Origin: Carcharhinus amblyrhynchos
Lineage: Eukaryota
Length of the DNA: 64,000 bases
Direction of reading: 5' to 3'
Assembly (NCBI GenBank): GCA_965287045.1
Contig: OZ336878.1
Location: 104,594,001-104,658,000 of the forward strand
Shown here: one piece after another, positions 654-59,231 of the stretch
How the letters are laid out: each line of letters begins with the position of its first letter
Position numbering within the stretch: position 1 is the first letter of the stretch
Translations under genes and position numbers: made by a program
Notes under the pieces: generated by a model
Told to the model about the DNA's origin: nothing
Seen by the model: only the letters and a program-made list of their open reading frames with translations
The model's database searches: none

Positions 654-680
654 CTTTTTCTTTCTTGGCTAGTGATGTTT
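654..680 (-). CDS. 27-nt phase 1-1 microexon, (E)TSLAKKEK
   Basis: ttttattttgttgggcag|AAACATCACTAGCCAAGAAAGAAAAAG|gtaaga. Core heptad positions L4/K7. Confidence 0.8.
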
Positions 681-1378
681 CTGCCCAACAAAATAAAACT
701 CTATCGTCACAAAGCAGCAACGAGGCTATATAGTCGACAAAAACTGAGCATTACAAGGAATTAGGAACATTCCTTGAAAGTGACTCAGTGTTTTGAGCTA
801 ATTCTCATCATTCATTTTTATGTTAATATAGATTTATTGACTTGAGGCATTTTTATTCGTAGAATAGATTATAGACCTTGCAGTGAATGATCTGCGTGGA
901 TTTTTTTTATTTCAAAGTAATACACCAGCAAGGGAATTACTACAATTTATTTGTTAAGATATTAATTATAGTCGTTCAGATCTAAACAGTAGCCTTAAAA
1001 GTAATTATGTGGTCAAATACAATGTGCAGCAGCCGATGAGAAACAGCTAAGGAAATTTTTCAAAACATGGGATCGATTTTCAAATTTCAATCACTTGCTA
1101 CAACGTTGGATGGTTCAGATAACGGGTTCATATAATGGCCAATCCATTGTTGGTAAATGTCAAGTAGGGAAGGCGTATGATAAGAAATGGAAATTTCGGT
1201 ATTTTGTAATGATTATTTTGAAAATATTCAGCTATTGGATGTTCTATGGTGAAAAAAGCAGCCGTTAAATGTTCAACTTCATTCGTTTCTGATAAAAGCC
1301 TACAGATGTTCAGTTGCACGCTCAAACAAATATTGCGTGGTTGCAACTGTAAACAATTCAGAATTAATTTATTCATAC

Positions 1379-1405
1379 CTAACGATTCATATTTTGCCTT
1401 CAATT
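1379..1405 (-). CDS. 27-nt phase 1-1 microexon, (E)LKAKYESL
   Basis: ataattttcctttag|AATTGAAGGCAAAATATGAATCGTTAG|gtatga. L2/Y6/L9 heptad core. Confidence 0.8.
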
Positions 1406-2513
1406 CTAAAGGAAAATTATAATTTGTTTAGTCCTGTGCATCATACAACCTGAGAGAGAAAGAAAAGAGTGGAATATGATCGATCCAACAGAACATAATA
1501 GTAATATTAAAACGTAATAACTGTAGTAATGAAAAAAAGTGCTAGTTGCAGCAAACGTCCTTGGAAACTGCACACAATAGAGAAGATCATATATATTGTT
1601 TCGACTCCCTAAGAAACTAGTTGCATCATAATACTCTAAATAGGGCTTCCTTCTTCCTGCATTTGTGTCTAAATGTATTCAGCACTAACATTTTTGATGT
1701 TGTTTGCATATAACAACGTTGGAAGAAATTAGTTTCTAGTATTATTTCATCGACGTAACGATATCTGCAAATGTTTGTTGTTTCAAGTGAGAATGAAGTC
1801 CAGCATTGATGCTGAAATCTAAATTAAATGCAGAAAATGTTGCAAAGACCCAACAGGTCTGGTGGCTTGTGTGGATAGGAAAGTGTCGTAACGTTTGGAG
1901 TCTGTATGAATATTCTTTGAAGTGAAAGATATGGTGCGATGTGATGACGTACACACCATCTACACCCCCTCCCCCATTGTATAGCATCTGAGGGCTCCCC
2001 ACATTTTCTTTGAGCAAATACCCGAAAAAGCCCCGACTGCTACTAGTCTCCTCCGCCTGGCAGTACTTCATCCCTCACGAATCAGCTTCTGCTTTAACTT
2101 GTCTCATTGTTTGCAAAATAAAAGCTGCGCCCATGGGTATCTGCTTATCTTTTTGTGGTTTATGTCCAACATTCCCTGCTTCTATTCTACTCAGCCCTGT
2201 ACTCAGAAAGCTTTTTCCATTATGTTATTAGCAGCATAATCAGAGCTGAATATAAACACACACGTTGCACAAAAAATAGATATCAATACATTTCGTAATA
2301 CCACAGCATCATCACACTCCACAACTGCTGCCTGAACCAATAATCGTTGTAGCGTCCTCGCTATTTATTGAAGGACGTTATGCTACATTTAATACTTTCT
2401 AAAGACACAAAGTAGCACAATATATATAAAAAAATGCTTCACTGAACAGGCAACACCTGCAGTCGTCGTCTGGAAATGCGAACTTCAACACGATAGGTAA
2501 CTACACCTGCATT

Positions 2514-2859
2514 ATAGAATCATAGAAACCCGACAGTGCAGAAAGAGGGCCATTTGGCCCATTGAGTCTGCGCCGACCACAGTTCCACCCAGGCCCTGTC
2601 CCCATATCCCTGCATATGTCCCCTCTAATCCCGCTAACCTACCCATCACAGGATACTAAAGAGCAATTTTAGCCTGGCCAATCGACTTAACCCGCACATC
2701 TTTGGACAGTGGGAGGAAACCGGAGCACCCGCAGGAAACCCAAGCAGACATGAGGAGAATGTGTAAACTCCACACAGGCAATGACCCAAGCTGGGAATCG
2801 AACGGATGATCTTAGAGCTGTGAAGCAGCAGTGCTAACCACTGTACTATCGTGCCGCCC
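2514..2859 (-). mobile_element. HE1-type V-SINE, near full length
   Basis: Minus strand begins GGGCGGCACGATAGTACAGTGGTTAGCAC (tRNA-like A box), then GTTCGATTCC (B box), V-domain GGGTTTCCTGCGGGTGCTCCGGTTTCCTCCCACTGTCCAAAGATGTGC, and a CR1-shared tail ending TCTATGATTCTAT. Confidence 0.85.
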
Positions 2860-8900: not shown

Positions 8901-8919
8901 GATATACGATGAAGGCTGT

Positions 8920-10230: not shown

Positions 10231-11156
10231 CATGTATGGATTGCGACAGGTGGAGCCATTCTCCATCGAAAAGAGATCCGCTGGAAGATTTGATATTTGA
10301 GTGTTGAAAATCCAATTTAGTACATGAGCCGAGTAGAGGGAACAAATTTTAACTGAGGCACAAAATAATCTTTGGTGTCTCAGTATAAGTTAGTTTTCAC
10401 AGTGTGATGTTATCATGTGAAAGGCAGTGTCTGGATGATTTGTGGAATCGGTTGTAGCCCCGAGTTTCAAAAGCAAATTAGATCATATTCGGAATACAGA
10501 AAATAAATGGCCTGAGATTTAAAAAAAAATTCTTACACAAATTTGCCGCAGCCACAACGGATCAAGTGCCTGCTTCAATGCTCGAACTATTCTGTGGTTC
10601 GATGTGAAGCCACCTTTAAATTAAGGTGCTCGAGATGATGATGTTAGGCAAGACAAGACATCAGACAGTTTGGTTGGTCGTTATGCTGGACAGCACAATC
10701 AGCCTTAAAGACAGTAGTTTGAAATAGTATGGTGTTGCTGGCAAGATTTTTCTTATGTCGCACCATGCTCTCTAGCAAACTGATACACCATTAATAATAT
10801 TTCCTGTGCTCTTGCCTTATCTATGTTTTGTATCTGCAATTGTCACGTAAGATGTGTATTTTGTAGAATCCCTGACTGTCTTCCGTAGACCTTAACATAA
10901 CTCTATATTGAAAGTATTTAATTTTGCTCACCAATTCTGGAAATAAATATTGCTACACCTGTCGATATTTGGTACAGACAAAATTGCAACGTAATTTGGC
11001 TTCTGCAACAAAGCCGTCCAATCACATCGATCCTTTCAGGAGATTGCCAGAGAACAGAATTCTGCTTATGCCTTGAAATAAATTGTACTCACTCTCCTAC
11101 AACATTAAACCTCAAATTTTCACGAAATAAAGATATGAATTCTCAAAGTATATTAC

Positions 11157-11180
11157 CTTTCAATTGTTTCATCTTCTCCG
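11157..11180 (-). CDS. 24-nt phase 1-1 microexon, (A)EKMKQLK
   Basis: ttgcttccggtttatcag|CGGAGAAGATGAAACAATTGAAAG|gtaata. Counterpart of 42218-42241. Confidence 0.75.
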
Positions 11181-11687
11181 CTGATAAACCGGAAGCAAAT
11201 ATAGAATGTAAGTGTTTTTTTAAAGCAGGGAATCGTGATGTGTTATGACAATCTTCTGTGTTACTTAGTTGTTTGGATTTGTGCGATGGTTCAACACAGG
11301 GAACGTTGAGCTTCCTCAATTCTACAAAGAAAACAATTAGCAGAAGCAATTTATGGAAAGGAAAGGAAAAATACTTCATCGGTGACCTGGGCAATTCCCC
11401 CTCCCCACCCCACGAAAAGAATGGTATCTTAAATAGCCTCAAATTATTCATAGCCAACATGTGTCACATTTTTCGTTGCAACTGAACATGACCCGTTATT
11501 ATCGCAATTACCATTATGCTGCTAATACAGACTGAGGAATGGACCTTGGAAACTCCACCTGTTGTGTGAGACACATTGCAGGTTGTGCTGATTGTCTTCT
11601 TGCAACTGCAACCCCCATCTTTACGACGTAAACTGAAAGAAATAATACCTGCCATGTCCACATAAAATAAATCATGGGGTACTTTAC

Positions 11688-11714
11688 CGAGTTGTTTTCG
11701 ACATTTTACCACCT
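11688..11714 (-). CDS. 27-nt phase 1-1 microexon, (E)VVKCRKQL
   Basis: ctctccttttaattcag|AGGTGGTAAAATGTCGAAAACAACTCG|gtaaagta. The 3' end CAACTCG|gtaaagta is identical to that of exon 43028-43054. Confidence 0.78.
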
Positions 11715-13316
11715 CTGAATTAAAAGGAGAGCGATAGACAAATTGTAAGGTTCATCGGCCTGAAAGAATGCTAAAGCACAGTAGGTAATAACAGAAAATG
11801 CACAATAAACTCAGCTGCTCTAGCAGGATCTGTTTATCCAGGAATATAATGGAATTTTCGAGTCGGTATGACTCATCTTCAGGACTGAAGACGGGTAAGT
11901 ACTTCTCGTTCTCGTTCTACAGGTAATGGAGACACATTTCCTTTGTCTACCTATCCGAAGCTGTCGTATATTTGTATATGATTTCACTCATTTGTCTTTG
12001 TGAAAAGGAGAACCAACCGAGAAACTGCAAGCAAATTATTCAGGCAAGCACATGAATCCGTGGAACATTTTATTTTGTAAATCTCATAACCTCCCTAAAT
12101 GTACTTAGCAATACGAATACAATGCTCTCTTCGTGGGTTCAACAACAAGTTATGAGGATTCGGTAATACTTACTGTTTTTGTACCGTATGGACAGCACTT
12201 AATGCTTCTCAGTCTTTCTGGGAATAAGTCAGGGGTGTCCATATATTGGGGCAAGACATTTTGAGCTCTGCCGCTTTCCAATTCAATCAATTAAGGCCAG
12301 GACAGGAAAAGTCATAGTGAGTTCTCTTTCTTCTGATTGGTCGCATGCACTCAGGTATGGGATATTCACAACACCCCAAGAGGTCGTGAGGGGAATTGCC
12401 AGCAATCCACTCAGCTCCACTCCCGAAAACTCAATATCGACAGGATACTGCCACAATCTCGAGCTGCAGAAAGGTTTTCTGCTTATTGTTCCAGGGATGA
12501 GGCACGTGGAAGGAATGGAAACGCAAGGGCACTTTTAGAAATAGACAAAGGGGAGATTTGAACATGGTCGTCATAAGCATGATAAGTTTTGCCAGGATAG
12601 ATTGAGAGACATTATTTCCAAATATATATAACGAAAATAACAGAAGAAGCTGATTTTCGACGATTGACAAAAAGAACGAATAAAATGAGTTGGGGTTGGT
12701 GGGGGGCGGGGGGGGAGATGGTGGGTGGGGGAGGAAAACTATTATGCGTTGATTTGAAATGCAATAACAAAGCTTTTGCTGCCGAGTTTTACAGTCCAAT
12801 CTTTAAAAATAAAATTGGATTAGCATCTGAAGTGATCGAAAGGGACATTTCAGGGAAAGGGAAAGTTTTGGAACTGAGTTGCAGAAAGATGACATGGAAA
12901 ACACCGTTTCATGACCTTTTGCCACGTTTCGACAATTCTATTATACTAGTAGAATAGCTTAAAATTTGCAGACTTCGCAGATCAATAGGGATCATTTTGG
13001 TCATTTTCCATGCTTACGTTCTGTAAGGAGATAAACGTAATTGAATAGAAGAACAATGGAAGCAAACATATACACGTCTGAAAAATCAGCGACCTACTCA
13101 CACTCAAAACGATTCCCTTTGGACTTCCTACGAGAGATTCCCCCGCGCCGCTCGCTGGACTTTTCTGAACAGAAAATGTTGTACAATGAGGCTCTACTTG
13201 CAATCCAAAGTAATGGTCATGACCTGTATGCAATAGGACACATAAGGGCTTCGAAATAATGCCAGATTGCTGAAACAAAATTGCACCATACTTAATAAAA
13301 AAAATCAACTTCTCAC

Positions 13317-13352
13317 CGCTATTTTCTGATACTCTCTTGACTCTTACATTTC
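13317..13352 (-). CDS. 36-nt phase 1-1 microexon candidate, (G)NVRVKRVSENS (hinge)
   Basis: ttttcctttacgtattcag|GAAATGTAAGAGTCAAGAGAGTATCAGAAAATAGCG|gtgaga. Its 3' end resembles 58789-58824 (ATAACG|gtaagaag). Confidence 0.55.
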
Positions 13353-15591
13353 CTGAATACGTAAAGGAAAACAAATGTTCTTACATCTATACGTCTTTGA
13401 CGACGCACACGACTGTTCTCCGAGATCCTGCATCAAATTTTGCAAGCATGATGCAAACATTAGGCATGGCTGTTTGTTAGGGATTTCAATGCCTCATTCA
13501 AATTGGATTGCAGTTGCTATACGTTGGTAGTACTGTCATTGGTACAATGAACATAAATTGATAAGTCGAAACGCTGGTGCTTTCTGATTATGCCTTCCCA
13601 GTAAATTAGGTCTAACTTCCCAAATTCCTGCTAAAAGCGAAATCTATTGTGCCAGCTCAAAGGTGAACTGTGCACCTAGAATAAATTGATCCCTTTTATG
13701 CACTGTAAGCAGAGTACCTTTATCCTGTACTTGTGGTGTAAAGTTAATCGGATCAAATTGTCCTGTCATGAATGCTAGTTTCAGCTAATCCCTATTTTTC
13801 CAATTGTTTGACCATGTATGCTAGCCAGTTGGCTGTCCCAGGAAACCAATGGTTGTCCATGGTGCAACAAGACTGCGTAAATATAGAATTCTTAATTTTA
13901 GATATACCATAATAATTTGACTATTTTAAGGTGCCTTATGAGAATTCACAATGTGCCGAGAACAAAATATGCAAAGGTATCATAAAATGCAAATTAACCA
14001 CGTATTATTTTACAACCTTATATTGTATTTTCAATATATATGTATTGTGCGTCTTTGTCAACTTCTGTTTGCATGCAGCATGATGGGAAACACAATAGAG
14101 ACAGACCAAATTCTTTTTTCATACAATGGAACACAGAAAGTCAGCTTCTCTTATGTGTTTTTGGATACACGAAAACATGTTTAAATCATAGGCTTGTTAT
14201 TTAAGGGAGTAAATTCTCCATGAGTAGCGAGGCTGGAGCAGTCTCTCAAGCTGATAAAGCAAACCCAGGTTCCAGTGAAAGAGGACTCATTTCACTAAGT
14301 AAATTCACATATAGCCTTGGACACTGGGAATGACTTGGGTTAGGTTTCTTCGGTAAAGTGGAAAGAACTTACATGGGCAATAAGCTAATAATTTGTTTTT
14401 CCTGTTGACAGGTGGAACGTTATTGGTTAAGGTAATAATTTTGAGTATTGTGATTGGGCCCTCCAGTCTGATTGACAAGACTAGGTGGGATATTGAAATG
14501 TTCAGAATAATATAATAATTTGCATTAAACTATATTACCTCAGAGAAAACATTTTATCCTCATTGACTGTGTTTCTCTCCTGATGCATACGTCAGCAAAC
14601 AAAATCGTTTTCGTTCTCAAACTATATACTATCTTTTGAAGTCTATGTATTGGTTTAATGAACTTCGACAAGCACAGGGAACTCCAGGGGACATCTCAGA
14701 AAATTCCCCTTGCACTTTGTGTGCACTGCAAGCAGTGGTACCTTCATCACCTTCCTATGGTGTAACGATAATAGCATCAGGTTGCTATGCCATGAATGGT
14801 ATTTGCTGCCATTCCCATTTTTTTCTCACTTGTTTAACCTTGTAAGGTAGCCCGTTTGCGGCCCCAGGGAAACTTTGACGTCTGTGATGTGACAAGACAG
14901 CGTAAACACATGTCGTATGGTTTTCAATTTTTTTAGTGATGAGAGAAAAACAAAATCACACCATTGCATTGATTTGGAAGTACTCTTAATATAGGTTTGT
15001 CTTGGAGTCCATGTAAAAAAGTGATATTTTCGAAGCATGTTATGGACAAATGGATGGGTATTAATTGCCCTCCAGAATGTGGGAAAACTGGATGCCTGGC
15101 TGCAATGAGTAAATGCATATTAGCCTGGAGCAAATGCCTGCAATTTAGCGATTTTGGTAATCTGACGAGTTTAATTAATGCACAATACGTGGTGCAGGGG
15201 CATGTATCCCGTCATCGTCTGACTAAAATTTGATAACAATAAAAAAATGGCGGCTGGTGTTTTACATCCTTAGGTTCATCAGAACGTACAACTTCGAAAT
15301 CCTTACTGAGACTCTTCGTATCAATAGAAACAAAATATCCACAATAGTGTATACATATAATTTTCCAATTAATTCCAACAGTGAGGCAAAATCCCACAAC
15401 GACTGTAAGATTATGCGGAACGGGCAGAAGATTAGGTTTATCGGTATAGCTTGTTAAAAGGAAACAAGTTACAGTTGAAAAAAAATGGACCCTCTTGCAT
15501 TCTGTTTTGCTACGGTTGACAGTGAATACCAAAATATTTCCGCTAATCACGAAACTTGTCTTATTTTAGAGCCAAGCCGTAGTTCTGTTAC

Positions 15592-15624
15592 CTTCAGTTG
15601 GGGACAGCTTCAATCTGTCCAATT
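15592..15624 (-). CDS. 33-nt phase 1-1 microexon candidate, (E)LDRLKLSPTE
   Basis: ttgactttgtttacag|AATTGGACAGATTGAAGCTGTCCCCAACTGAAG|gtaaca. L2/L5 continue the heptad register from 21756-21782, then a Pro breaks it. Confidence 0.6.
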
Positions 15625-15764
15625 CTGTAAACAAAGTCAACTCAATCAGCTCTTTCATAACACAGGAAGGACAAGTTGAGTTCAAATTTCTCACATCTAA
15701 GGTTATTTCTTCTTTTGTTTTAAGGCGACATGTGACCCTTTGCGGTCGTTTACAGGAAAGAGAT

Positions 15765-16095
15765 AGAGAACCTGCTGACTGGTGCAACGACACCAATCTC
15801 TCCCTCAATGTCAACAAAATGAAATAGTCATCAACTTCAGGAAGCGTAGTAGAAGGCATGCACCTGTCTACATCTATGAAGACGAAATAGAAATGTTTGA
15901 GAACTTCAAGTATTTAGGTGTCCAGATCACCAACAACCTGACCTGGCCCCTCCATGCGGTTACCGCAATTAAGAAAGCATACCAACGTCTCTATTTTCTC
16001 AGAGTCTAAGGAAGTTGGTATGTCTGCTTCAACTCTCACCAACAGATGCACAGTAGAAAGAACTTTAGTTCTGGATTTATCACAGCTCATGAATG
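15765..16095 (+). mobile_element. Non-LTR retrotransposon RT C-terminal remnant (Rex1/Babar-like), interrupted by the inverted-terminus element
   Basis: ORF 15782..16009 includes FKYLGVQITNNLTW…KKAYQRLYFLR, preceded by WCNDTNLSLNVNK in another frame. Confidence 0.7.
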
Positions 16096-16895
16096 TGTGA
16101 GCGCGAGTGGGCGAAACGACCACTTCGGACTCAGGGTGAAGTTCAATAACGGTACAGCTTTATTTTCTTTACGTCGACGGAGAAGTGCAGTCAGGACATA
16201 CAATCGGACTGTTCCGAAAGCTCTCTGCCTGTCCCTTGCAGCAGGCTATGGTTATACCAGAACTTCGGTGCAGTATGCGATTCAAATGCTAATACTTTAT
16301 TTACAGCATTCGACCTTAGCCATCCTGTCTCAATGTTTTCAAGTGTTGAGGAAATTGTTTTAGGTGTGTGTTAATTGTTTTGTCTGATTGGTTATTTAAT
16401 AGTCTAGAATCTCCGGGGTTTGAACCATAGGTGTGTCATTGATCTCAAAAGAGGTTTTGAGGGGCCAGGAATGTTTCCTTAACTATGCTAATTTTAGGTG
16501 TCTCCATGGGTTGTTTGACTGTTTTAAAAGTGCTGATTTTGATGGGGTGGAGATTTAGTTCCTGCAGGTGCCATCCTGTCCAGCTTCCCTTATGTGCTAG
16601 CCTTCATTTGCATTCTAAAAGCATGCTCTTGCCTACTGTTCGATGTCTGTTAGTTTGTGATTTTTAGTGGAGAGGCTCTGAGTGTAACTTTAGTCTGTTT
16701 CCATTTCCTGTGCCCAATTTCATAAAATTTGTTGTCCGATAACAGATGTATCATGGATCCTGCTGTGTCCAGGACCGCAAGAAACAACAAAACTGTGCGA
16801 GGGACGGGCAGAGCACTTTCCGGGCAGTCCGAATGCATGTCCTGACTGCGCTTCTCCTTAGTCCGTAGTGGTCGTTTCGCCCACTCGCGCTAACA
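16096..16895. mobile_element. 800-bp non-coding element with TGT…ACA ends and long imperfect terminal inverted repeats
   Basis: 16096-16135 matches the reverse complement of 16856-16895 at 37/40. A second block, 16179-16240, matches the reverse complement of 16796-16857 at about 52/62. Confidence 0.8.
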
Positions 16896-18044
16896 ACAGC
16901 TATTGTGCAAGTCTAAACTTAGGTGGGCTTTAATATTTATTTCATTACTTGCATTCCTGGTGCTAGATTGAAGCAAAGTAGAACTTGGATTCTACAAGTT
17001 GTTTAGAATGTTGTTTTTAATGTCAATTTCGGCAAATTGTCTCAAAAATATGGTCACACAAAATGGATAATATCCTTCAAAAATAACTAAGCATCCTACA
17101 CCATAAATATCAACATTACTTCAGTCGGCACACTCAAAGGAAGTAAGATTTCGCTGCAAAACAACTTGAACTGAAAAAAAAGTATTATTTGCCTCAGGAG
17201 ACTTTTACGAAATAATCTTTGCATTTTAACTGAAGTTGCACGATGTTAAGTTGTGGAAACAGTATAAATTTTCAGAAGTACTGAATACCTTGAAATATAA
17301 ATATAAATTTGCGGCTGCTGCGTAAATGCACTGACATGTAAGGTGATCAAGTAAGAATGACCACCGCAGAATTACTGCCGGTGTAATAGTTAATCATAAA
17401 TATTTTAGTTTAAATGACTCATTATGCTCCATTACTTTATTTTGATACACACTGAGCAAGTGAAGTTAATTTCTGAAAGCAGAAATCAAAATTAGCCAAA
17501 ATACTCTCGATTTCTTAGTTAGTACGCAGAACTTATCGGGCTGTCTATAAGCAGACGGGCAACACTGTCCAAGTCAACATTATTCAGCCTGCAATTATCG
17601 TCTGCGGGAAGGAAATGTCCTTCACTTTGAAGTACAGCCCTCCAGGCATGATGCCTTGGATGGACTGCAAGGACTTTGACCACCAGAAGGTGCAGTAGCG
17701 TGGATTCAAGTCAATTTACGTCAGCATATGTCTTTCATAGGTAATAGTAGGTGTCAATGAATGATTATCTCTTGTCCTTCCAACTGTTAGTGGTCGACGG
17801 CTTGGGGAGTCATACCGAAGTAGATACTGCATTGCATTTTCCAAATCAAACACTTAGCTGCAGTGGAGCATCAGTTAAAATGAAACAATGCTTCAGGTTT
17901 TGGGTATGGAGCAAGATTTTTTTCTCTGTGATCTTTACTGTTAAATTTTACGTATTGTTGTCGCCAGTGGGCTTCACATTAACACTGCAGTGTTGTTACT
18001 GTGAAAATCCGCTAGTCGCCACACTCAGGCGTCTGTCCACGTAC

Positions 18045-18232
18045 ACTAGGCAATGCAGCTAAGCAGTACATCTTTCAGACTGTGAGAGGAAACGGGAGCA
18101 AACAAGGAAACCCACGCAAATACAGGGAGAACTTGCACACATCAGTCAGATGGTAACGAAAGCTGGATCTCGAAGCGAGGCCTCTGTTGAAGTGAGGCAA
18201 CAGTGTTGACTAATGTAGCACCTTGACACCCT
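18045..18232 (-). mobile_element. Decayed HE1-type SINE
   Basis: acatctttcagactgtgagaggaaacgggagca…ggaaacccacgcaaatacagggagaacttgcaca (reverse V-domain). Confidence 0.7.
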
Positions 18233-19131
18233 ATGTGCCAAATTTCATGAATGAAGTTTGAACTGTAGTCATTTAGGCGAGAGAAGGCGAAAGCCACTAA
18301 ATTGCTAACATGCGTGGGCGAGTTATAGAAGTTGCACCATTAGTTTATCACCATATATTCGAAGATTCCAACTTGCCATTGTAGCTTGAACTTTTCTAAG
18401 ACAAGTTCAGTAAAGATCGCGATCAAAGGTAATGCACGAGTTGTTGCCAAATGAAAATTTATTGATATTTAGGTCATTGACTGTCAAAAAAAGTGTTATG
18501 TTTTCTCTTCTTGGTAATGATCATTACTTGACACTTTCTGTTACACGAATATAACTTGTGCGTCAGCAGCTGAAGCCTGAATGTCCGGGCACCTGTAATG
18601 GTTCTGTTTCTAAATGGTTGTGTTTCTAAATGGTTGTGATAACTTTCATCCCCGCCAAGTATTGCTGAATATCCCCACGTCTGCTTCTATCTTTTCTGGA
18701 GATACAAATATGCGGTTCATATGATGTTTACATATTGGAAGTATATTATAGGTGCCCGGACATTCAGGCTTCAGCTGCTGACGCACAAATTATATTCGTG
18801 TAACAGAAAGTGTCAAGTAATGATCATTACCAAGAAGAGAAAACAGAACACTTTTTTGACAGTCAATGACCTAAATATGAATAAATTTTCATTTGGCAAC
18901 AACTCGTGCATTACCTTTGACCGCGATCTTTACTGAACTTGTCATAGAAAAGTTCAAGCTACAATGGCAAGTTGGAATCTTCGAATATATGGTGATAAAC
19001 TAATAGTGCAACTTCTATAACTCGCCCACGCATGTTAGCAATTTAGTGGCTTTCGCCTTCTCTCGCCTAAATGACTACAGTTCAAACTTCATTCAAGAAA
19101 TTTGGCACATAGGGTGTCAAGGTGGTACATT
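18212..19131. repeat. Long inverted duplication: arms about 18212-18599 and 18745-19131, 145-bp spacer
   Basis: The arms are reverse complements over about 388 bp, with about 10 differences counted by eye. The spacer contains a 16-bp direct duplication tgtttctaaatggttg x2 (18605-18636). Confidence 0.95.
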
Positions 19132-21755
19132 TAGCCTAACTTAAGAAGATCATGTGAAACTTTCTGCAATTTAGCTGACAGTAATGCTGGATGCTTTTGT
19201 TGTTGGACATTATTTGCTGTGAAAAAAACTGCAAGTTTTTTTTCCTGCAGGCAATAGTAATAAGGGTGGGCAATGGGTATAATGTAAGCCTACGACAATC
19301 CGAAAAATGCACTAGGTATTTGTTACAGAATGTTATTTTAATACAACAACGTTGAACGGAAACCATTGCTTGTTTCACCACTGAACGTGACGTCATCACC
19401 TGTTGCTGTTGCCACCATTGTACATTTGTATATTAACTGCCGTTAGTTCTAATTCTATTCTGTGACGGTAGTTTCGATGTTTAACTAACTGCTCCCTATT
19501 ATGAGTTCATATTTTATTTTAACTTCATTTATAGTTATATATTTAAAAACTTAAACATTCACAACAGGATTCAATTACGTTTTTGTGTATTCAAGTCACC
19601 ATTGTGTGTATAGTTAATAAAAACGCCATCGAATTCTAAGAGGAAAGTGAGTTCGAATCATGGCCAACGACTAAGCATTTTAGCCAGATGCAAGTTCGAT
19701 ATTTTTAACGTTGCTGTGGAGTGGGAAATCGATTAGCTATGAAAATTTCCTTCAAATCAACGAATGTCACAAATGGACGGCAGTTCCAGCAGACGAACGA
19801 GAATTCCTGACTTTGAGCACTACGGCAGGCAATTCCAGGAAGGAGACAGACACAGTTGAAGAGACATGCCTTGCATCCAACTAAGGATTTCGCACTCCCT
19901 CCGGCATGATCAAAACTGTGAAGAATCGGAAGAAAGGACTTTCCTACATGCGATAGATTGGAGGAAATCTCTGAAAGCTGAGAAAAGAAAACACATGGAG
20001 ACCGGAATCAGTCTTAACCTATTACTCGGCGAAATTAGGATTAGTACAATGATTGGAAGGTGGGAGAAAAAGTGGTCTGTTTGTTTCCACGGCTAAATCG
20101 GCGTGGACTGTGATGCACCATGAGTGTAAACAGGAAACTTTTTCCTATACATTTGAATGTATGCGTTTCTTACAAAAACAATGTACTGTTCAACCGTTTT
20201 TTTTTAAAGGAAAATGTCTCCCGTCAAATGCAATCACATAACAACTAATAGTTCTAAATTCTTTTTACAAATAGTCGCACTCTATAGAGATGGTAACATT
20301 GGGAAGATTCTTGATCAGGCAGTTGCAGCTTGAACAAAGGAAAATCTCATTATGATCTTCTGTCAATACAACAAAGGGTTAATGTAATTCATAACTAAAA
20401 CAGTAGGTGCATATAATTTAGGCACTACCTGCCCAGAGGTTTCCTCAGTAGCCATTTGTTTCAATTTTAAGAGTGCTCCTTGATGACATAGCGGGCCAAT
20501 GGAGCCTTGATGTCGCGAAAAATAATTTATCATAATTTTTAGACACCATCCACACTTGCACAATTACAGAAATGAGATCTATAGCTGAGCTGGCGTTGCG
20601 GAACTCAATTGGGCATCACTAAGCACATTTTTGCTGAGATTGCAAGATACATGAGCTAAGACTGGTGTATTCACATTTACACCTTCGCCCAGCTGAAGTC
20701 TCCCAACTCGACTTCAGAACTGAGTAAAAACGTCTGAATAGATAATGAAGATTATATGATTTCAATTATTTTTGTTAGGTATATTGAACATAACATTGCC
20801 TTCCCTGATTCTTATTTTCCTGGTTTAGGAAATGTTCTTGACCAATATCTGAGGGAATATGATCGTACGTATTCGATATTACATCAGTAATAGCTGCAGT
20901 TTACCAGGCCATGAATTGTTTGATGGTGGATCGTGCAATCAGGCATGCAGAGTTATCTACTGGTGCCACGTTATACTGGTCGATGTTGTCGTCTTCCAAG
21001 CAACTCATGCAGAACAGCTGGCATGTGTTGATAAATACTGCACCGCCAGTGAATGATAACGTCTGACGTGCCTTGTTGCTCTGAGGAAAATTATAGGAGA
21101 AGACTTGGAAGTGTCTTGAGTTTTATATAAACTTCTTTGCACTGGTTGGTCAAATAGAACATCCTTGCCTCCGTTCGGGGGATGAAATTTACCTGACTGC
21201 TTTGGCTAGATTTTTCATCAGTTGGGAAATCAAGAGTTATGGGGAAGGCACAGGGAATTGGATGTGGGGAATGTTGCATCAGCCATAATCATATTGAATG
21301 GCAGAGCCAGAAGAGTGGGCCCTACATTCGACTGCTGGAAACTTCTGTTTCCTATGGTTTGGTTGATCATATTTGGAGTTAAAATTTAGTTTCATGAAGC
21401 ACATATACGTAGTGTGCAGGGGAAGTGCAGTCGGTAGGCGAAATTATCTTGCCAAAAAACAACATCCTGTTGAAGGAGAACATTTATTTCACGAAAATCA
21501 TTTACACAGCTCAGATTTTAGAGACTTGTGGGTTGAAATTACTTTAGCATGCAACAAGATGGGAGATATTTAAAAAACATGGCATGTCACGTATTTTCAA
21601 TATAGGCGGAGCCAAGTACTATTTCGGGCCTTCAACGTTGTGCCATCTTTTCAAACAATTGAGGCAGAAAGTGCCATTAAGGGGAATAACTAATATTCTG
21701 AATTAAAGTGGAAATTACAAAACTATGCTAGCTAAATGTATTTTAAAATACTCAC

Positions 21756-21782
21756 CGGCGTCTTTCTCATTAAGTTTGAGCT
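21756..21782 (-). CDS. 27-nt phase 1-1 microexon, (E)LKLNEKDA
   Basis: ggttttcttttgtag|AGCTCAAACTTAATGAGAAAGACGCCG|gtgagt. L4/K7. Confidence 0.85.
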
Positions 21783-21981
21783 CTACAAAAGAAAACCAAT
21801 TTGCAAACATCCATGGATTATCGGTGAGAGTTATCATTAAAAAAATCATAAAGTAATTACAAGTAATTTGATACCATTATTTGATATTCGGTAAATAAAA
21901 TCAATAATCTGCTTAATTATGTTACATGGTAACGGTAATGTTTTCCGCACTGCATTAATGCAAAAACCAATGTGTTGATAC

Positions 21982-22017
21982 CTGCAATTGTTAGCTTGCG
22001 CTGGAAATTACGGAGTT
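21982..22017 (-). CDS. 36-nt phase 1-1 microexon, (E)LRNFQRKLTIA
   Basis: Long T-tract…ttag|AACTCCGTAATTTCCAGCGCAAGCTAACAATTGCAG|gtatca. L2/F5/L9/A12. Found where the heptad register predicted a 36-nt exon. Confidence 0.75.
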
Positions 22018-23224
22018 CTAAAAAAAAAATCCGATCAGTGAAATTATAAAATCAAACAATCATAGAATCCCTATAGTGTAAAAAGAGGCCATATTTCTTG
22101 TTTAGTCTGAATAACATTCGTTTTGATATCAAAATCGCCCATACTCATCACAGTAAGTGTTTGTTTTCATTTGAAATACAGGACGTTTGTTATTTTAGAG
22201 TTTCTCAGCATTGTTATGGAATCATACATTCAGGATTAATTACAAGCTGTTTTACTCGTTCGTCAAATGTTTAAGTGCGTACATAGCGTTGACGCATCAA
22301 CTTACATTATCATAAAGGATGGTGTAATTTCATCATCTCAGTAAAAATTGACTACTGCACCGCCTAGTACTGATAACCCGTGATCATGTTTTCTTATCTC
22401 CTGTGCAACTTACACACTATGCAAATAACATATTTCTGGAGGCGGCCAATATTGATCTCAATGGCAGAGAGTCGAATTAGCAAACATTTTGTATTGAACA
22501 CATCGGAATTCTTGAATGTTTTTGCACCAATGTCTACTGCAGTGAATCATAATTATTCCATTACCTTCCTCGTGTCAAAATTACTAAAAGGTTTTCAGGG
22601 GTCTTGAGCTTGCAATATCGAAATATGGATATCATAAATAAAATGGCGGTCTGACTTCTTGTAAGGGGATCAATAATTCAGGATAGCTTCAAAATAACCT
22701 GGAACTATTTGAATTTATTCTGAGGAACTAATCAAATACTACAACATTTGTCGGTTTGAAAAATTAATTTATTTCTAAAAGAAAAATACAGAAAATGTTG
22801 GGTATTTTATTATGTGATCATAGGATATTGGCTTTGTTGTCTTGTAGAGCATGCATTGTCACCTCAAAATTGTATTTGAACTGAATAGCTTTCTTGATCA
22901 ACTCAGATGACATTTACGAGTCAACCCATTTATTTTGGGATTGCGACTAAACCAGTCAAGGATTGCAAATTTCCGTTCCAGAAGGGCACAAATGAACTTG
23001 ATGCTTATTTTACAATACACGGCAATGTTTCGTGCTCATCATTAGACTCTAATTCCATGTAACTTTATTGAACTCAAATTTCAACACCTGCCATGGGGGG
23101 CGGGGGAATGGAACACAGCAACTGTACACTCCCCCCTCCCCCCCTCGCCAACCCACAGATCATTAATGCATTGTCCGTTCAGTAAAGATATCACGAAACT
23201 TTCAGCTCCTCATAAACTCTACAG

Positions 23225-24200
23225 ATATAGTAGCATCTGTGAAGAGAAACAGAATTAATAGTTCGGACCTATTGGTATTTCTAGTGAACGGATGGATGGA
23301 TTAATGTTGACATTTGGAAAGTGGCGGAGGAGGTAGGGCGAAATAGACGACCAGTGATAGACCAGGATAAAGGAATTATTGACAATTATTTCTTAGATGT
23401 AGCAAAGGGGAACGCTAATAGTGACATTAAGGAATACACAGTGTTACTAGCCGCAGAAGGTAAGATACCAGAATGTGCTAATTGGTGCATTGAAGAATAC
23501 GGACAAACTAAGTAGAGGAGTTGAGGGTGTCATAGCCATGTTAGGGGAGACCATGTGGCTGAAATACAACTGACACCAAACTGTAAAATGGGACACATGG
23601 TTAAGATGGAGAGGAAGTTAGCTGTCTCAAATTCTGGAACTCCACTGTTGCGTCCAAAGACTTATCGTGCCTAAATCGTAGACGAAGTATCACAGTACTG
23701 CAGAAGTCCAAGTGTATAAAATGTGGACATGAGATCAAGATGCTCAGCTGATGATTTATTAGTCAGCGGTCGGGTTGTCTCATGGTTGCGGATGGAATGA
23801 AGATATTGCACAAAACAATCAAACAACTTTAAGTTTCGCCTCTGCTATGTAGATGAGACACCATTGAGAGCAGTTAATATCAAACTTAAACAGATACAGG
23901 TGAAACAGCGTTTCATCTGAAATGACCATTTGGGTACTGTGCAAAAATAGATAGGCAGGTGCTGCACTGTTTGCCTTTGCAGGGGTAGGTGCTGTGGGGT
24001 AGAAATAGCTCGTTTGGGACAATTGAAGATTGTACCAGGATGTCGCGAAGGAAAAAGGGCAACGGGGGATGCTAATGGGAGAACATTTGTTTATTGGGGA
24101 TATTATGCTGGATTTGGAGGAGAAGTTGATCCTGTTAAGTTTACCCAGTGTGTTTTGTTAATTTCAGATTCCCAACATCGATAGTATTTTGCTTTCAAAA
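23225..24200. mobile_element. Decayed repeat, probably a Penelope-like remnant
   Basis: Begins with a recurrent motif (gcatctgtgaagagaaacagaattaa, also seen at about 1830 and 11800) and ends …tttcagattcccaacatcgatagtattttgcttt. No intact ORF. Confidence 0.35.
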
Positions 24201-24432
24201 TAGTTTTGGCTGCTGGAATATATCCGGACACCTTTTTTTTAGATCCATAGTATAAGCACATGACTACCCCATACTGACATATTTTTCTTATATTCCAGAT
24301 GCATTCTTTTCAGTGTAACATAAGTAAGATTCCAAAGACTGATAGTGGAAATTAGTTCCCAACTATAAGAGAAAATAAATTGAACTAATTTCAGAATCCA
24401 TTTGGTAAAGCGACATATTTTCAAACACACAC

Positions 24433-24459
24433 CATCGTCTTTCTCTTTCAGGAGTGTGT
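24433..24459 (-). CDS. 27-nt phase 1-1 microexon, (N)TLLKEKDD
   Basis: tatgttttcctcaacag|ACACACTCCTGAAAGAGAAAGACGATG|gtgtgt. Shares GAGAAAGACG with 21756-21782. Confidence 0.75.
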
Positions 24460-25158
24460 CTGTTGAGGAAAACATAATCTAGATAAAATAAATCGCACAC
24501 ACATGTCATTGCATCTTAAGAAGATAACAAACGATTTAAATGATCCTGATTTTATTGGAGTATTTTGGATAGAACAGTGTACAGATCCATTGCATTCAAG
24601 ATTGGTTTTCTTTTCTTTTTCGTGCTTGAACTTTCACCGGTATGAACGCTTCCAGATTAACAATTAGATTTATTCATATGTACACTGAAGTGGCCTGCTC
24701 CACTGAAACAAATTTACGTGAACATTGGAATGATCAAGTCAAACTCTGCTACCACAATAACATTGTTCACTGGGTGGGTGTTTTGTTCTTAATGCCAGCT
24801 TTTGTTTCGATTCAGATTACTTGAAAGAAGGTGGGAATGTGTGACGTTGTTGCATATTTGCAAGGTTATTACAAAAAAGTTAAGGGTTAACTACAGTGCC
24901 ATTGGCTTACTTGTGGCGTGGGTGGACCAGGCCATCACTAAGCTAGATGGACTGTCACAAAACCTGATAGTTTCATCGCACTTATTACCGATGTTAACAT
25001 TTTATTGAAGACATACTAAATAAACTGCAGTATTCTCCCCATGTGACATGTGATGTTTAATGTCTAGTGAAATCCTTCAGATTATAACAACAGTAATGTG
25101 ACAGTAATGCTGCAGTGCTTTTCGAGTGCCACAAATTGGGTACCACATTTACACTCAC

Positions 25159-25194
25159 TATTGTCGTCTATAGTTCGCTGCATTGTTTCAGCTT
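25159..25194 (-). CDS. 36-nt phase 1-1 microexon, (E)AETMQRTIDDN
   Basis: ccattttcattcattttag|AAGCTGAAACAATGCAGCGAACTATAGACGACAATA|gtgagt. A2/M5/I9/N12. Confidence 0.8.
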
Positions 25195-25579
25195 CTAAAA
25201 TGAATGAAAATGGAAACATTTGTCTGATTACTTTTCATAAAAAAAAGTTGAATTAGGTACGAAATTTATGAAAATAAATAAATGAACCGTCGGAATTAGA
25301 TATTAGAAATACATTGTGCGGTAATACAATGTGCAATTATCCGCTTAGCATCAGAGAATCTAGAATCAGTTGCTGACGAGGGCTCTGACACAACTGATTC
25401 TGTACCGACACGTTATAAACACTAGACTTCACGCCTAATGCCATCTACCAGCACATGACCCATGGCCTTGAATGTTATGACGCACCGACTCCGTATCTAC
25501 GTACTTTTAATGGCTAAGATGCAACCCGCCTGCACCATCCTCCGAAGCAGAGTATTCCAGAACATCAAGGCCCTCTGGG

Positions 25580-34873: not shown

Positions 34874-34900
34874 CCTGCACTTTACTTTTGAACTGAGCTT
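34874..34900 (-). CDS. 27-nt phase 1-1 microexon, (E)AQFKSKVQ
   Basis: tattgtttgcag|AAGCTCAGTTCAAAAGTAAAGTGCAGG|gtaaga. F4/K7. Confidence 0.8.
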
Positions 34901-39125: not shown

Positions 39126-39152
39126 CTAGATTCTCTATAGTTGTTTTGTGCT
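39126..39152 (-). CDS. 27-nt phase 1-1 microexon, (E)HKTTIENL
   Basis: tattctttatatcag|AGCACAAAACAACTATAGAGAATCTAG|gtagga. Counterpart of 1379-1405. Confidence 0.75.
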
Positions 39153-42217: not shown

Positions 42218-42241
42218 CTTTATTTGCTTTGAAAGTTGCAA
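42218..42241 (-). CDS. 24-nt phase 1-1 microexon, (V)ATFKANK
   Basis: gtttttcgctttaccag|TTGCAACTTTCAAAGCAAATAAAG|gtaaat. Confidence 0.7.
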
Positions 42242-43027: not shown

Positions 43028-43054
43028 CGAGTTGCAAACGAAGCATATCACTTT
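43028..43054 (-). CDS. 27-nt phase 1-1 microexon, (E)SDMLRLQL
   Basis: tctctgttcaacttcag|AAAGTGATATGCTTCGTTTGCAACTCG|gtaaagta. Confidence 0.75.
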
Positions 43055-43314: not shown

Positions 43315-43332
43315 CCAAAGCAGTAGGTTTCA
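43315..43332 (-). CDS. 18-nt phase 1-1 microexon candidate, xKPTAL
   Basis: tttccttattcggtttgcag|TGAAACCTACTGCTTTGG|gtaaga. Strong sites, 79-nt downstream intron. Confidence 0.5.
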
Positions 43333-50557: not shown

Positions 50558-50699
50558 CACACACAAGATGATAGCGAGATAGGCAATGTAGAAATGCCCT
50601 ACGTCTATATCTCTGCAAAACAGATATTCCGTTCTGGATTCTGTTGAGGGTAAGTGCCACACAGAGGAAATCAGCAATGGGCATATTCGTTGCGCCACA

Positions 50700-53305: not shown

Positions 53306-54023
53306 AGTAGTTTAAAAGTTTTTATGTATCATCTGTCAAACACAATCCAGCAAACCCTAGGCCTTACCGTACGCCATTTTAAATTTTCTGAATTTATGTT
53401 CACATCTTCTGGTATAAAGCACAGACATCGAAAGTACCAGGTTTGTGATGTCATAGTGACTTCAGTGCGCTTCTGAAAGAGGTGTCCACACCACATCAGC
53501 TTTTTCCAATTTATACAGTCAGCGGCGGAGTCCAAGGTAACTGAGATTAAATTGGATTCAATTCTTTTTTCTCAAAGTACACAAAGTGCATTTCTAATAA
53601 CCTACCAAAATTAAGGACCAGGCGGGTATTATTCGCTAAATAATATAAAAAAAACGATTTTGTTCTCTCGTTAACATTGGGTTTCACCACGAGATGCTGT
53701 CCAGATAATCTGTGATTTTATTCTTCCAAGGCCATTTCATTCATCCCTTTCCTCGTGCTAACCTTTCTATTTCTCATATGAATTCACGATTTTTTTTCAA
53801 TTTCCTTTCTAATTTAAGAAAGAAACAATAATTCGAATCTTTTCTTCAACAACTGTTCCACTGGCATTGTCCTAGCTAAAATGTTGTCCTTCTCCAGAAT
53901 ATCCTTAGCTCTATTGATGATAATCTTGGCAGTGGGGATGTACCAGCATGACATTTTAATCAACTTCCAGTGACAATTCTGTGCTTTTCTAGAGGAATCT
54001 GTACAAACATTTAAGTTAATTAA

Positions 54024-55490
54024 CGGCTAATGTTACGCCGTTGTTTAAGAAGGGTGCCAGGCAAAAGGCGGGGAATTATAGGCCGGTTAGTTTAACGTCT
54101 GTGGTAGGTAAAATGTTAGAATCCGTCATTAAGGAGGAAATTGCGAGGCATCTTGAAGGGAATTGCTTGATAGGGCAGACGCAACACGGTTTCATTAAAG
54201 GGAAGTCGTGTCTGACAAATTTACTGGAGTTCTATGAGGATGTGTCTAGGGCAGTGGATAGAGGAGAGCCGGTGGATGTGGTCTTTCTGGATTTTCAGAA
54301 GGCGTTTGACAAGGTACCTCACGAGAGGTTATTGCAGAAGGTCAGGGGACATGGAGTTGGGGGTAGGGTGTTAGCGTGGATAGAGGATTGGTTGTCAAAT
54401 AGGAGGCAGAGAGTGGGGGTCAATGGGTGCTATTCGGATTGGCGGTTGGTGACTAGTGGGGTGCCCCAGGGGTCGGTGCTGGGGCCTCAGCTATTTACCA
54501 TTTATATAGATGATCTGGAGGAGGGAACCGAGTGCAGGGTGTCGAAATTTGCTGATGACACCAAGATTGGGGGAAAGGCAAATTGTGCGGAGGGTGTGGA
54601 GAGTCTGCAGAAGATCTAGATAGGCTGGGCGAATGGGCCAGGAAATGGCAAATGGAATTTAATGTTGGCAAGTGTGAGGTGGCCCACTTTGGTAGGAAGA
54701 ATGGTAGGAATGACTATTACTTACGTGGCGAAAAACTGCAGCAGGCGACGGTGCAGAGGGACCTCGGGGTCCTTGTGCATGAGTCGCAAAAACCCAGCTT
54801 GCAGGTGCAGCAGGTGGTCAGGAAGGCGAATGGGATGCTGGCCTTCATAGCGAGGGGGATTGAATATAAAAGTAGGGAGGTCTTGCTGCAGCTCTATAGG
54901 GCATTGGTGAGGCCGCAGCTGGAGTACTGTGTGCAGTTTTGGGCGCCGCACCTGCGCAAGGATATTTTGGCCCTGGAGGGAGTGCAGAGGAGGTTTACTA
55001 GGCTGATACCGGAGTTGAGGGGATTGAGCTATGAGGAGAGGCTGAATAAACTAGGCTTGTACTCGTTAGAGTTTAGAAGAATGAGGGGAGATCTCATTGA
55101 GACGTATAAGATGATGAATGGGATGGATAGGATAGAGGTGGAGAGACTCTTCCCGCTCAAAAAAGACAGTAGGACTAGGGGGCACAGCCTCAAGATAAAG
55201 GGGAGGCGGTTTAGAAAGGAGTTGAGGAGGAACTTCTTCACTCAAAGGGTGGTGAATCGCTGGAATTCTCTGCCCGTTGAAGTGGTGGAGGCTGCCTCGC
55301 TAAATATTTTTAAGAAGCGGGTTGATGGGTTCTTGATAAGAGAGGGGATTAAGGGTTATGGGGAGAGGGCGGGAAAGTGAAACTGAGCCACGACAGATCA
55401 GCCATGATCTTATTGAATGGCGGGGCAGGCTCGAAGGGCTAGATGGCCTACTCCTGCTCCTATTTCTTATGTTCTTATGTTCTTATGTTC
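54024..55490 (+). mobile_element. Young 5'-truncated CR1 LINE with near-intact RT (one frameshift near 54612)
   Basis: ORFs 54041..54619 ([40 protein letters not shown]) and 54583..55380. (TCTTATGT)n tail, flanked by TTAATTAA at 54016-54023 and 55491-55498. Confidence 0.97.
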
Positions 55491-56990: not shown

Positions 56991-57304
56991 TAAGAACATA
57001 AGAAATAGGAGCAGGAGTAGGCCATCTAGCCCTTCGAACCTGCCCCGCCATTCAACAAGATCATGGCTGATCTGAAGTGGCTCCGTTCCACTCTCCCGCT
57101 TTCTCCCCATAACCCTTAATCGCATTGCCTAGCAAAAACCTATCTACCCGCGTCTTAAATATATTTAGCGAGGTAGCCTCAACCACTTCAACGGGCAGAG
57201 AATTCCAGAGATTCACCACCCTTTGAGTGAAGAAGTTCCTCCTCAACTCCGTTCTAAACTGCCCCCCCCGCCCCCCCCCCATCTTGAGGCTGTGCTCTCT
57301 AGTC
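56991..57304 (-). mobile_element. Short young CR1 3' fragment, same subfamily as 54024-55490
   Basis: ELRRNFFTQRVVNLWNSLPVEVVEA and a near-identical 3' UTR. Flanked by CTGAACA at 56984-56990 and 57305-57311. Confidence 0.92.
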
Positions 57305-58788
57305 CTGAACAGTATTACAAACGTTTAAGGTGGAGTTAATTTTTTCCGGGCTCAGAGTGCATTTTGTTTTTATTGGACTGGAGGTGACCTGTGAATATGT
57401 TCATCAGTTAAAAGACAATTGGAATGATACTCAAGCGTACAATATTGTTCTTCTCCAAATAGCTCCAAGGATAATTATGTTGGCATATATGTTCACGAGA
57501 CATGATTTTCAGCAGAATGTTCCTCAGACCATTTTTATGGCAGTCAAGTTAAGAATTGAAATCGAGTTATCTGGGTTTTTTTGGATGCTTCGTGTGCCTG
57601 AAGCTATGGGCGCTGGCTGCGCAGTCAAAGGTAACACATCTTTTCTTTTTGATAGTGTTTACATAAAGTGGCTAAGAATCAATATTTCAGTCTCAAAATC
57701 TAGGGTCGAAAATGTTCCCTTACATTTTTGATAAATGTGGCAATAATAACGTTGTATAGATATCAGTTATTCTCCTGCAATTTCTTTATTGCCTTTGTCC
57801 AATATTTATAAAGTGATACCAAGGTATTCAAAATGCATGCTTGGTTTTTTTTTCTGCCCACATATTCACATTCTAATTGTTCAGGCACTTTTTCCCTCAT
57901 CTGTCGAAATTTACTTTCACTTGTCTGAATATGAGTGTGAGCAATCTACGTAGTTTCAAAAGGTCTGGGATCTGAATTTTATAGCTTGAGCATGCCACTC
58001 ATGAAATAATGCCTACTTTCCTGGTTATTGTTTAACGTTTCTTCCCAGGATCTTACGTTGGTTCTGAAGTCCAAGGGCCTTGCTCCACTTATTTGCAAAC
58101 ACACACTCTGGCCATGACTGAATTCTTCCTCGAAGCCAATTCCATCTAAGTTCATTTTTTTGGACCTTGCGAGGATAGCATTTCTTTATAAATGAAGACT
58201 GTGTATTGAACGAGGTGCCTTAACGATATTTAACACTTCATGAAAAATAATCGATGAAAAAGTAGTTTCGAATAATGAAGAATTCGCAATGGAGTGTATA
58301 GTGTTAGTACAGAAAAGCGAGGACGCTCTTTATTTCTGCACTTAAGCAAATCCCTCCTTCAAATACTTTTGAAATAATGTCCACACATCTGAGTGCCACA
58401 CGTTCGAATTCAACTTTTTGTCATAGAAAGGGCACAATTTCTTTGCAGTACTTTCGAGAACCTGAAAGGTAGGCAGTGTTGAATTGCTTTCTTTGGAATA
58501 TCTAAGTTAATTGAGATTTGTGTGAAAATTATATAAAAAAATGAAAGGCTAGATGTAGAGATAAACTACTAGTGCTACCAGAATCGAAGACAAAGGTTCC
58601 TGCCTCAAATTTCCCTCAATTACAACTTTGGACAGGCTTGGAAGTTAAGGCTCCAGTTTCCCCTTTACTCCTGCTTCTACAGAAACGGGATTCACGCGAA
58701 ATTTGCTGACATATGTGGCTGCACATTACGTTTTAATATTATTTTCTCTGAAAATACGAATTGGTGAACTTTTATTTTAGCTTCTTAC

Positions 58789-58824
58789 CGTTATCTTTTC
58801 GCAAACTCTCGCATTTTTCGAACG
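58789..58824 (-). CDS. 36-nt phase 1-1 microexon, (A)FEKCESLRKDN
   Basis: ggttttttaaacttctcag|CGTTCGAAAAATGCGAGAGTTTGCGAAAAGATAACG|gtaaga. Confidence 0.75.
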
Positions 58825-59204
58825 CTGAGAAGTTTAAAAAACCGGTCTTAGTCGTGCCATTTCCAAAATCCTGAACAGCCTTTCCATTGAGGAACAGCCT
58901 TTCCACATTCAGGTAAGTGTCTTCTAGGTGGAGAGCAGAAATGAATTCTGCGGCCACGTTTTCGTTCCTGAATTTACCTTCAATTATCTCTAAATTGTAC
59001 AACAATTCCACGATAGCCTTTCCTTACTGCCATTTTTAATAAAACGGTAAAATCTAATTTTGTGCCTTACAATGTCATATTGCTTCAATGCATTGTACCT
59101 GATTACTGAGTTCTTTGTCTAAAAGTTTGCATTGCTGAGGCAGCAAGCAACAGGGCTAAGTTGTTAATAATCAAAATGTAATTCTCCGAATCCCAGATTT
59201 TTAC

Positions 59205-59231
59205 CTTCAACTGTTTCGTTCACCTTTGCCT
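59205..59231 (-). CDS. 27-nt phase 1-1 microexon, (E)AKVNETVE
   Basis: atgattattcgacag|AGGCAAAGGTGAACGAAACAGTTGAAG|gtaaaa. Same class as ELKLNEKDA and EAQFKSKVQ. Confidence 0.65.

Follow-up and report, generated by a model that had tools for sequence, protein, structure and literature searches.

Conserved phase-1 micro-exons and a local heptad register in a probable coiled-coil rod gene of the shark Carcharhinus amblyrhynchos

The stretch of DNA analysed here (the window) comprises 64,000 nucleotides of the 2.9-Gb genome of the shark Carcharhinus amblyrhynchos (C9:104,594,001-104,658,000, contig OZ336878.1). Along its minus strand lie 19 conserved micro-exons, all of phase 1-1. The reading that we consider probable is that they belong to a gene for a soluble, jointed coiled-coil rod, from a family whose proteins end in a B30.2 domain, and that the sums of 21 and 35 residues into which neighbouring exons combine are a trace left by selection as exons were duplicated and lost, and do not serve as units of splicing. 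Coordinates beyond the window follow its numbering, where negative values lie downstream of the minus-strand gene.

Micro-exons of the window and their conservation

The window's micro-exons are real. They sit in a region duplicated in tandem, of which unit 1 (+169.6 kb to -206.2 kb) holds the window and unit 2 runs from -223.5 kb to -642 kb. Each exon below was compared with its tandem copy, with P0174 (a computed spliced model of 730 residues from the catshark S. torazame), or with both. Classes A to E are the register classes into which an earlier, sequence-only reading of the window had sorted the exons.

63915..63950, minus strand: 36-nt exon, class B, entering the heptad at g and leaving at e; tandem-copy and P0174 comparison
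59205..59231, minus strand: 27-nt exon, class A; tandem-copy partner, 6/8 residues identical to P0174
58789..58824, minus strand: 36-nt exon, B-like, continuing into a linker; tandem-copy and P0174 comparison
43315..43332, minus strand: 18-nt linker exon, register-breaking, absent from the earlier reading; tandem-copy partner at -354660
43028..43054, minus strand: 27-nt exon, class C; tandem-copy and P0174 comparison
42218..42241, minus strand: 24-nt exon, class D; tandem-copy and P0174 comparison
39126..39152, minus strand: 27-nt exon, class E; tandem-copy and P0174 comparison
34874..34900, minus strand: 27-nt exon, class A; tandem-copy partner, diverged 9-residue piece in P0174
25159..25194, minus strand: 36-nt exon, class B; tandem-copy partner, 9-residue piece in P0174 at the same place
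24433..24459, minus strand: 27-nt exon, class A, NTLLKEKDD; tandem-copy and P0174 comparison
21982..22017, minus strand: 36-nt exon, class B; tandem-copy and P0174 comparison
21756..21782, minus strand: 27-nt exon, class A; tandem-copy and P0174 comparison
15592..15624, minus strand: 33-nt exon with a Pro-containing linker at its end, absent from the earlier reading; 7/10 identical to P0174
13317..13352, minus strand: 36-nt non-B linker exon, absent from the earlier reading; 6/11 identical to P0174
11688..11714, minus strand: 27-nt exon, class C, absent from P0174; tandem-copy partner without acceptor
11157..11180, minus strand: 24-nt exon, class D, absent from P0174; tandem-copy partner
1379..1405, minus strand: 27-nt exon, class E; tandem-copy and P0174 comparison
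654..680, minus strand: 27-nt exon, class A; tandem-copy and P0174 comparison
1..3, minus strand: first 3 bases of a 24-nt exon that leaves the window (to -20); tandem-copy and P0174 comparison

In order, the exons encode 12, 9, 12, 6, 9, 8, 9, 9, 12, 9, 12, 9, 11, 12, 9, 8, 9, 9 and 8 residues. Several lines of evidence bear on their reality. A splice-and-composition model, trained on 1.308 Mb, makes 190 calls on the minus strand and 4 on the plus strand at a score of 12, and the length of 183 of the 190 is divisible by 3. Between the two tandem copies there are 71 collinear exon pairs, against 3 on the control strand. The ratio of non-synonymous to synonymous substitution (dN/dS) is 0.44 over 67 of these pairs (95% bootstrap 0.34-0.57) and 0.37 (0.22-0.58) over the 17 pairs of the window; four pairs had been excluded beforehand (189285, 128561, 118871 and -143543), two of which (118871 and -143543) were later shown to be homologous. 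P0174 aligns directly with 14 of the 19 window exons, shows two further diverged 9-residue pieces in place, and has no counterpart of exons 11714 and 11180, so that 16-17 of the 19 are represented in it. Both P0174 and P0001, a spliced model covering the 3' half, map onto the genome exon by exon and in order. Window positions 11000-25400 are present in relatives in three DNA runs whose output is dominated by repeats. Exon 43332 shares 72% nucleotide identity with its partner (exon plus flanks), and opposite it P0174 has a 13-residue linker; an exon of 15-21 nt for the first half of this linker was sought in the window and not found. At -418,513 a conserved 36-nt exon of unit 2 has GC as its donor, against GT in unit 1.

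The same window also holds a CR1-like reverse transcriptase remnant on the plus strand (54,020-55,380), with many copies across the region, presumably a CR1-type long interspersed nuclear element. An intronic 72-bp tandem duplication lies at 31,452-31,592 (2 copies, 97%).

Heptad register and the arithmetic of exon lengths

The classes enter and leave the heptad at fixed positions: B from g to e, A from e to g, C from g to b, D from b to c and E from c to e. Register is kept within helical segments, and off-register linker exons separate the segments. A Viterbi heptad path through P0174 scores 80, compared with 45 +/- 6 for 200 shuffled exon orders (best shuffle 62); along it B exons enter at g and A exons at e, with 8 register breaks in 619 residues. 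When register is forced across junctions, the real order is cheaper than shuffles in each of three sets (p<=0.001), and a cruder measure, the count of continuous junctions, gives a weak signal (15/48, 13/47 and 3/18). The proposal that the exons form register classes is upheld, and their order keeps the heptad far better than shuffled orders do.

Much of the detail behind that proposal stands as well. No window exon encodes a multiple of seven residues, as the list of 19 lengths confirms. Four of the five class A peptides are found as quoted, and the fifth, NTLLKEKDD (24459-24433), is correct when the codon split with exon 25194 is taken into account. The two B exons that had been predicted between consecutive A exons (22017-21982 and 25194-25159) have AG/GT ends and tandem-copy partners. 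The sums fare less evenly. B+A (21 residues) is contiguous three times and C+D+E+A (35 residues) twice, but nowhere in the window do exons adjoin as A+C+D+E, the order in which the longer sum had been written, since three more conserved exons intervene (43332-43315, 15624-15592 and 13352-13317). Read in order, the window gives stretches of 21, 18, 35, 21, 21, 23, 35 and 8 residues; the 18- and 23-residue stretches come from extra exons that break the sums, which the sequence-only reading had itself named as grounds for abandoning its rule. The 23-residue stretch is the 33-nt exon 15624 plus the 36-nt exon 13352. All three extra exons have unit 2 partners, and 15624 and 13352 also occur in P0174; the three carry P, G and S and may be joints between helical segments. 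A relaxed, non-exhaustive search of 49 homologous introns yielded no exon in the window that would rescue the sums; it returned one 14-residue linker exon upstream, and overlooked a 36-nt exon at 156,979 to which P0174 points.

Successive 12-residue exons lie 21 residues apart in 8 of 17 intervals of P0174 (p=0.004 against shuffled order) and in 7 of 14-15 intervals of the C. amblyrhynchos genome (p=0.003-0.005), intervals that are not independent, the exons being paralogs. Taken by itself, the window gives no significant result in the length tests (2 of 4 intervals, p=0.08-0.16), and the signal emerges over the 48-62 exons of the window's half of the gene. As a general grammar the rule fails: besides the 8 breaks in 619 residues, only 1 of 14 intervals in the 3' half (P0001) is a multiple of seven (p=0.94), and other repeat units of 9, 18, 39 and 89 residues occur, of which the 39-residue unit (12+9+9+9) recurs three times in P0001 and the 89-residue one is an internal repeat in a further spliced relative. 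The register rule is real but local, confined to the 5' half of the protein.

The array, its units and its neighbourhood

Micro-exons extend over some 2.4 Mb of C9, between about 106.32 and 103.96 Mb, and end at an intact SPRY exon, below which five sampled tiles contained none. A contiguous 1.308 Mb gives 237 calls at a score of 9; sampled tiles give 25 vs 2 and 13 vs 2 calls, with 30 near the 5' end. Allowing for the 4 of 19 window exons that score below 9 and for some false calls, we estimate about 400 micro-exons in the whole array. Units 1 and 2 are each headed by a phase-1 exon of 132 nt that carries an ATG at offset 14 (in unit 2 from -234,330), a third copy heads a unit at C9 105.372 Mb, and the exon matches the start of P0174. 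This is likely the start-codon exon, and the window would then be part of a gene of about 370 kb. Three parts of the units lie outside the window:

163,691-163,560: 132-nt ATG exon of the window's unit
from -204,769 (stretch L051:4740-5231): broken B30.2 of the window's unit, acceptor intact
-638,309 to -638,817: intact B30.2 (SPRY) exon of the next unit

Unit 1 has lost much of its tail. About 113 kb are deleted, and of the six tail exons located beyond -170,899 five are dead (a stop or a lost site) and one is weak. The B30.2 remnant is 69% identical to the intact copy and is broken alike in three other organisms. Among the 150 best hits across 2.4 Mb, the sole intact B30.2 belongs to the last unit, and the unit above the window's showed no B30.2 remnant at its end. 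It follows from the dead tail that unit 1 either has an undetected last exon or splices on into unit 2, a route that the open phase-1 leader would permit.

Two rival readings bear on these gene ends, beside that of several tandem genes, which we regard as likelier than one giant gene. The serial units could form one giant transcription unit in which the 132-nt exon is internal and splicing runs past the dead tails to the intact B30.2. The single intact B30.2 domain would fit this, as would the finding of only two DNA copies and the retention of unit 1 rod exons beside a decayed tail; the 132-nt exon is itself of phase 1-1, with a 14-nt leader open in all three copies, and no other last exon turned up. 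Against it, the ATG holds the same offset in all three copies and in P0174, conservation climbs sharply there, and the S. torazame model starts a short stretch above the ATG; about half of C9 105.26-106.32 Mb was read. We hold this unlikely in view of the repeated 132-nt ATG exon. Its fullest form is doubtful too: the whole 2.4-Mb run as one gene, with at least about 400 micro-exons arisen by serial internal duplication, dead B30.2 domains skipped, a jointed rod of at least 4,000 residues with one B30.2 at its tip, and the 27+36-nt pair as its basic brick. It is very unlikely that the window's unit arose recently as a pseudogene of the intact copy downstream. The broken B30.2, the deleted tail and two internal exons with lost donors speak for it, but 67 exon pairs retain frame and splice sites at a dS of about 0.6, and identity of the rod exons to the catshark is similar for the two copies (120 of 180 residues in unit 1, 126 of 180 in unit 2). 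The B30.2 remnant has also fallen to intron-like identity (69% vs 66%), while the rod exons are not so decayed.

The B30.2 of the catshark ortholog is intact, and its best solved relative is the B30.2 of BTN3A1 (E 7e-18). Among 86 of the longest stop-free minus-strand frames of C9 106.31-106.39 Mb, at the 5' end of the array, no Ig, RING, B-box or membrane family was found; nor was any such family found in the five close relatives P0017, P0019, P0023, P0026 and P0033 or in P0071, nor a V-set match near the array among the 150 of 1794 candidates scored. The N-terminus of P0174 is the short acidic 132-nt exon and not an Ig domain. A medium-exon scan of 1.308 Mb, which missed the 132-nt exon, gave no convincing transmembrane exon; the stop of the neighbouring gene has two weak hydrophobic candidates no more than 3 kb away. 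An Atlas search returned only generic coiled-coil clusters whose families disagree.

Around the array, an exon of GABBR1, a gene that marks the extended MHC (major histocompatibility complex), lies about 236 kb beyond the last exon (L139:9078-9236), and SPRY exons are dense on the same chromosome arm. A possibly TRIM-like frame was noticed by eye in L140. The next gene upstream (C9 106,383,670 and upstream; L161, L160) is a similarly built paralog that has an intact B30.2 itself and resembles catshark XP_038672308.1. On C16, 60.4-66.4 Mb (L168-L175) holds at least six related B30.2 exons, most of them preceded by phase-1 exons of 21-36 nt. The closest named relatives found come from sharks, rays and a chimaera.

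Exon turnover, splicing and relation to known families

Comparison of orthologs and paralogs shows how modules and single exons come and go. P0174 contains an exact tandem A+B copy (a 21-residue module, residues 149-190), and one adjacent 36+27 pair has lost both donors in unit 1 and kept them in unit 2. Other events do not respect modules: the unit 2 partner of C exon 11714 has lost its acceptor singly, and in P0174 C+D (17 residues) are missing and a 9-residue piece takes the place of B exon 25194 of C. amblyrhynchos. The A+B duplication and the paired B+A loss fit modules; many other events do not. Also missing from unit 1 is a helical segment, about 35 residues long, present in unit 2 and in the catshark.

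Some side observations concern turnover elsewhere in the array. Where unit 1 lacks that segment, -54,000 to -92,000 carries a local duplication of about 13.5 kb and an element that we take to be gypsy-like. At 409,500-530,700 (C9 105.00-105.12 Mb) some 30 near-identical single 27-nt exons stand in tandem and encode a 9-residue D/R/M/S-rich, non-heptad repeat, which looks like a young single-exon expansion; the catshark paralog P0170 also starts with 9-residue repeats. At C9 106.15-106.24 Mb (L131, L145-L152) there are repeated 36+18-nt pairs of 18 residues, the length of a heptad plus a hendecad, with Cys in several copies.

The sequence-only reading had further proposed that exons are skipped by module. 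The isoforms available for four family members are computed RefSeq models and not reads, they lie outside the window's own exons, and micro-exons in them are easily mis-mapped. Distinct internal isoform differences amount to 12, 11, 23, 8 and 8 residues in Narcine and to 6, 9, 9 and 9 in the other models, so that none of nine internal skips is a whole number of heptads; two differences near the N-terminus (16 and 18 residues) likewise are not. Chance often gives 0 of 9 (about 0.25), a result that would be unlikely if modules were the main splicing unit. Splicing by module is unsupported. A regulated scheme, in which whole-module skips change rod length and single skips shift register and dimer partner, strikes us as highly improbable. 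It can draw on the phase of the exons, every one of which can be skipped with the frame kept, on single-exon skips in the isoform models of relatives, and on heptad-exon skipping reported for macaque BTN3A (PMC6790196). The nine skip lengths count against it, and several of the skips sit in linkers.

Another alternative, which we think unlikely, dispenses with grammar altogether: a continuous coiled coil cut by introns would regain register every few exons, and the 21-residue spacing would reflect descent from one old B+A series. The restriction of the spacing excess to the 5' half, the common ancestry of the exons and the indels of orthologs, which show no excess of multiples of seven, all agree with it. 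It accounts poorly for register kept across unlike classes (one interval of 105 residues, or 15 heptads, includes exons of 8, 9, 12 and 14 residues) and for the recent exact A+B duplication and paired loss. The selection reading in turn carries its own weaknesses. Only two clean module events are known, one duplication and one loss; of the indels between relatives, 1 of 10 and 1 of 11 are multiples of seven, no more than chance. With module events few and indels at chance level, the case for module selection depends chiefly on exon order. The spliced orders come from computed RefSeq models with visibly ragged ends; the heptad scale is approximate and the author's own table, with borders inside unmatched protein pieces set by hand; and the exon pairs behind dN/dS were picked by similarity, which lowers dN somewhat. 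In addition, several genes would each need a last exon, and neither the window's unit nor the one above it yielded a new one.

We nevertheless consider probable the reading of a jointed rod shaped by selection on exon turnover. Since all exons are of phase 1-1, any of them could be copied or lost in frame. Inside helical segments mainly register-closing sets (B+A; 8+9+9+9) would persist, and single exons would come and go at linkers or as stutters. The rod may dimerise through a zipper of the type LxxK[DE]xE[IL]xxL and, in units that keep it, hold a B30.2 binding domain at its end. The array would consist of tandem genes, each starting from a 132-nt ATG exon, among which the window's unit (about 370 kb) has presumably lost its B30.2 and kept its rod exons.

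Known families offer partial parallels. In BTN and TRIM genes a 27-nt exon precedes B30.2. According to PMC5938342, the tails of chicken BG are a long coiled coil made from many tiny phase-1 exons in varying number. Most measure 21 nt and a few 18 or 24 nt, the true heptad already straddles a pair of exons, and BG is linked to the MHC. The shark exons share the butyrophilin/BG feature of phase-1 micro-exons encoding a heptad coiled coil, with lengths of mostly 27 or 36 nt against 21. BG, however, has an IgV domain and a membrane segment and no B30.2, whereas the shark family ends in B30.2. Butyrophilins such as BTN3A1 and BTN2A1 also place several short heptad exons ahead of B30.2, one of them skippable (PMC6790196), but they have few, compared with about 60-100 detected per shark unit, and their IgV, IgC and membrane exons were not found in the parts of the array scanned. 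PMC12841164 reports BTN genes on the MHC class I chromosome in several sharks and rays. TRIM proteins (RBCC-B30.2) likewise join a cytosolic coiled coil to B30.2, and many SPRY exons lie on the same arm, but no RING or B-box was detected at the 5' end of the array or in the close relatives, and the shark rod is written in micro-exons and exceeds that of TRIM proteins many times over in length. The shark gene may work like a BG/BTN tail and is at most a candidate member of that family. Orthologs or paralogs exist as chondrichthyan models (XP_038671249.1, XP_072329362.1, XP_069775418-28, XP_038672308.1, XP_042191566.1), with automatic names that include 'zinc-binding protein A33-like' and 'golgin A6-like'; these are fragments of at most 945 residues, and none covers a whole unit. 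A literature search, with subscription papers and supplements outside its scope, found nothing on this family or on 27+36-nt modules.

The arrangement would be a second way of writing a coiled coil in tiny exons, by off-register exons that close the register as a pair, compared with one exon per heptad in BG. Between them, the tandem copies and the shark orthologs amount to a natural experiment in the exon changes, whether gains or losses, that a coiled coil can bear. Relatives carry only fragmentary annotation for these megabases of coding micro-exons, which are likely to lie beside the shark MHC. If the units were joined in one transcript, the gene would be among the most exon-rich known; titin has 363 exons, and under the one-gene reading the shark gene would match or exceed that count and lie, unannotated, next to the shark MHC.

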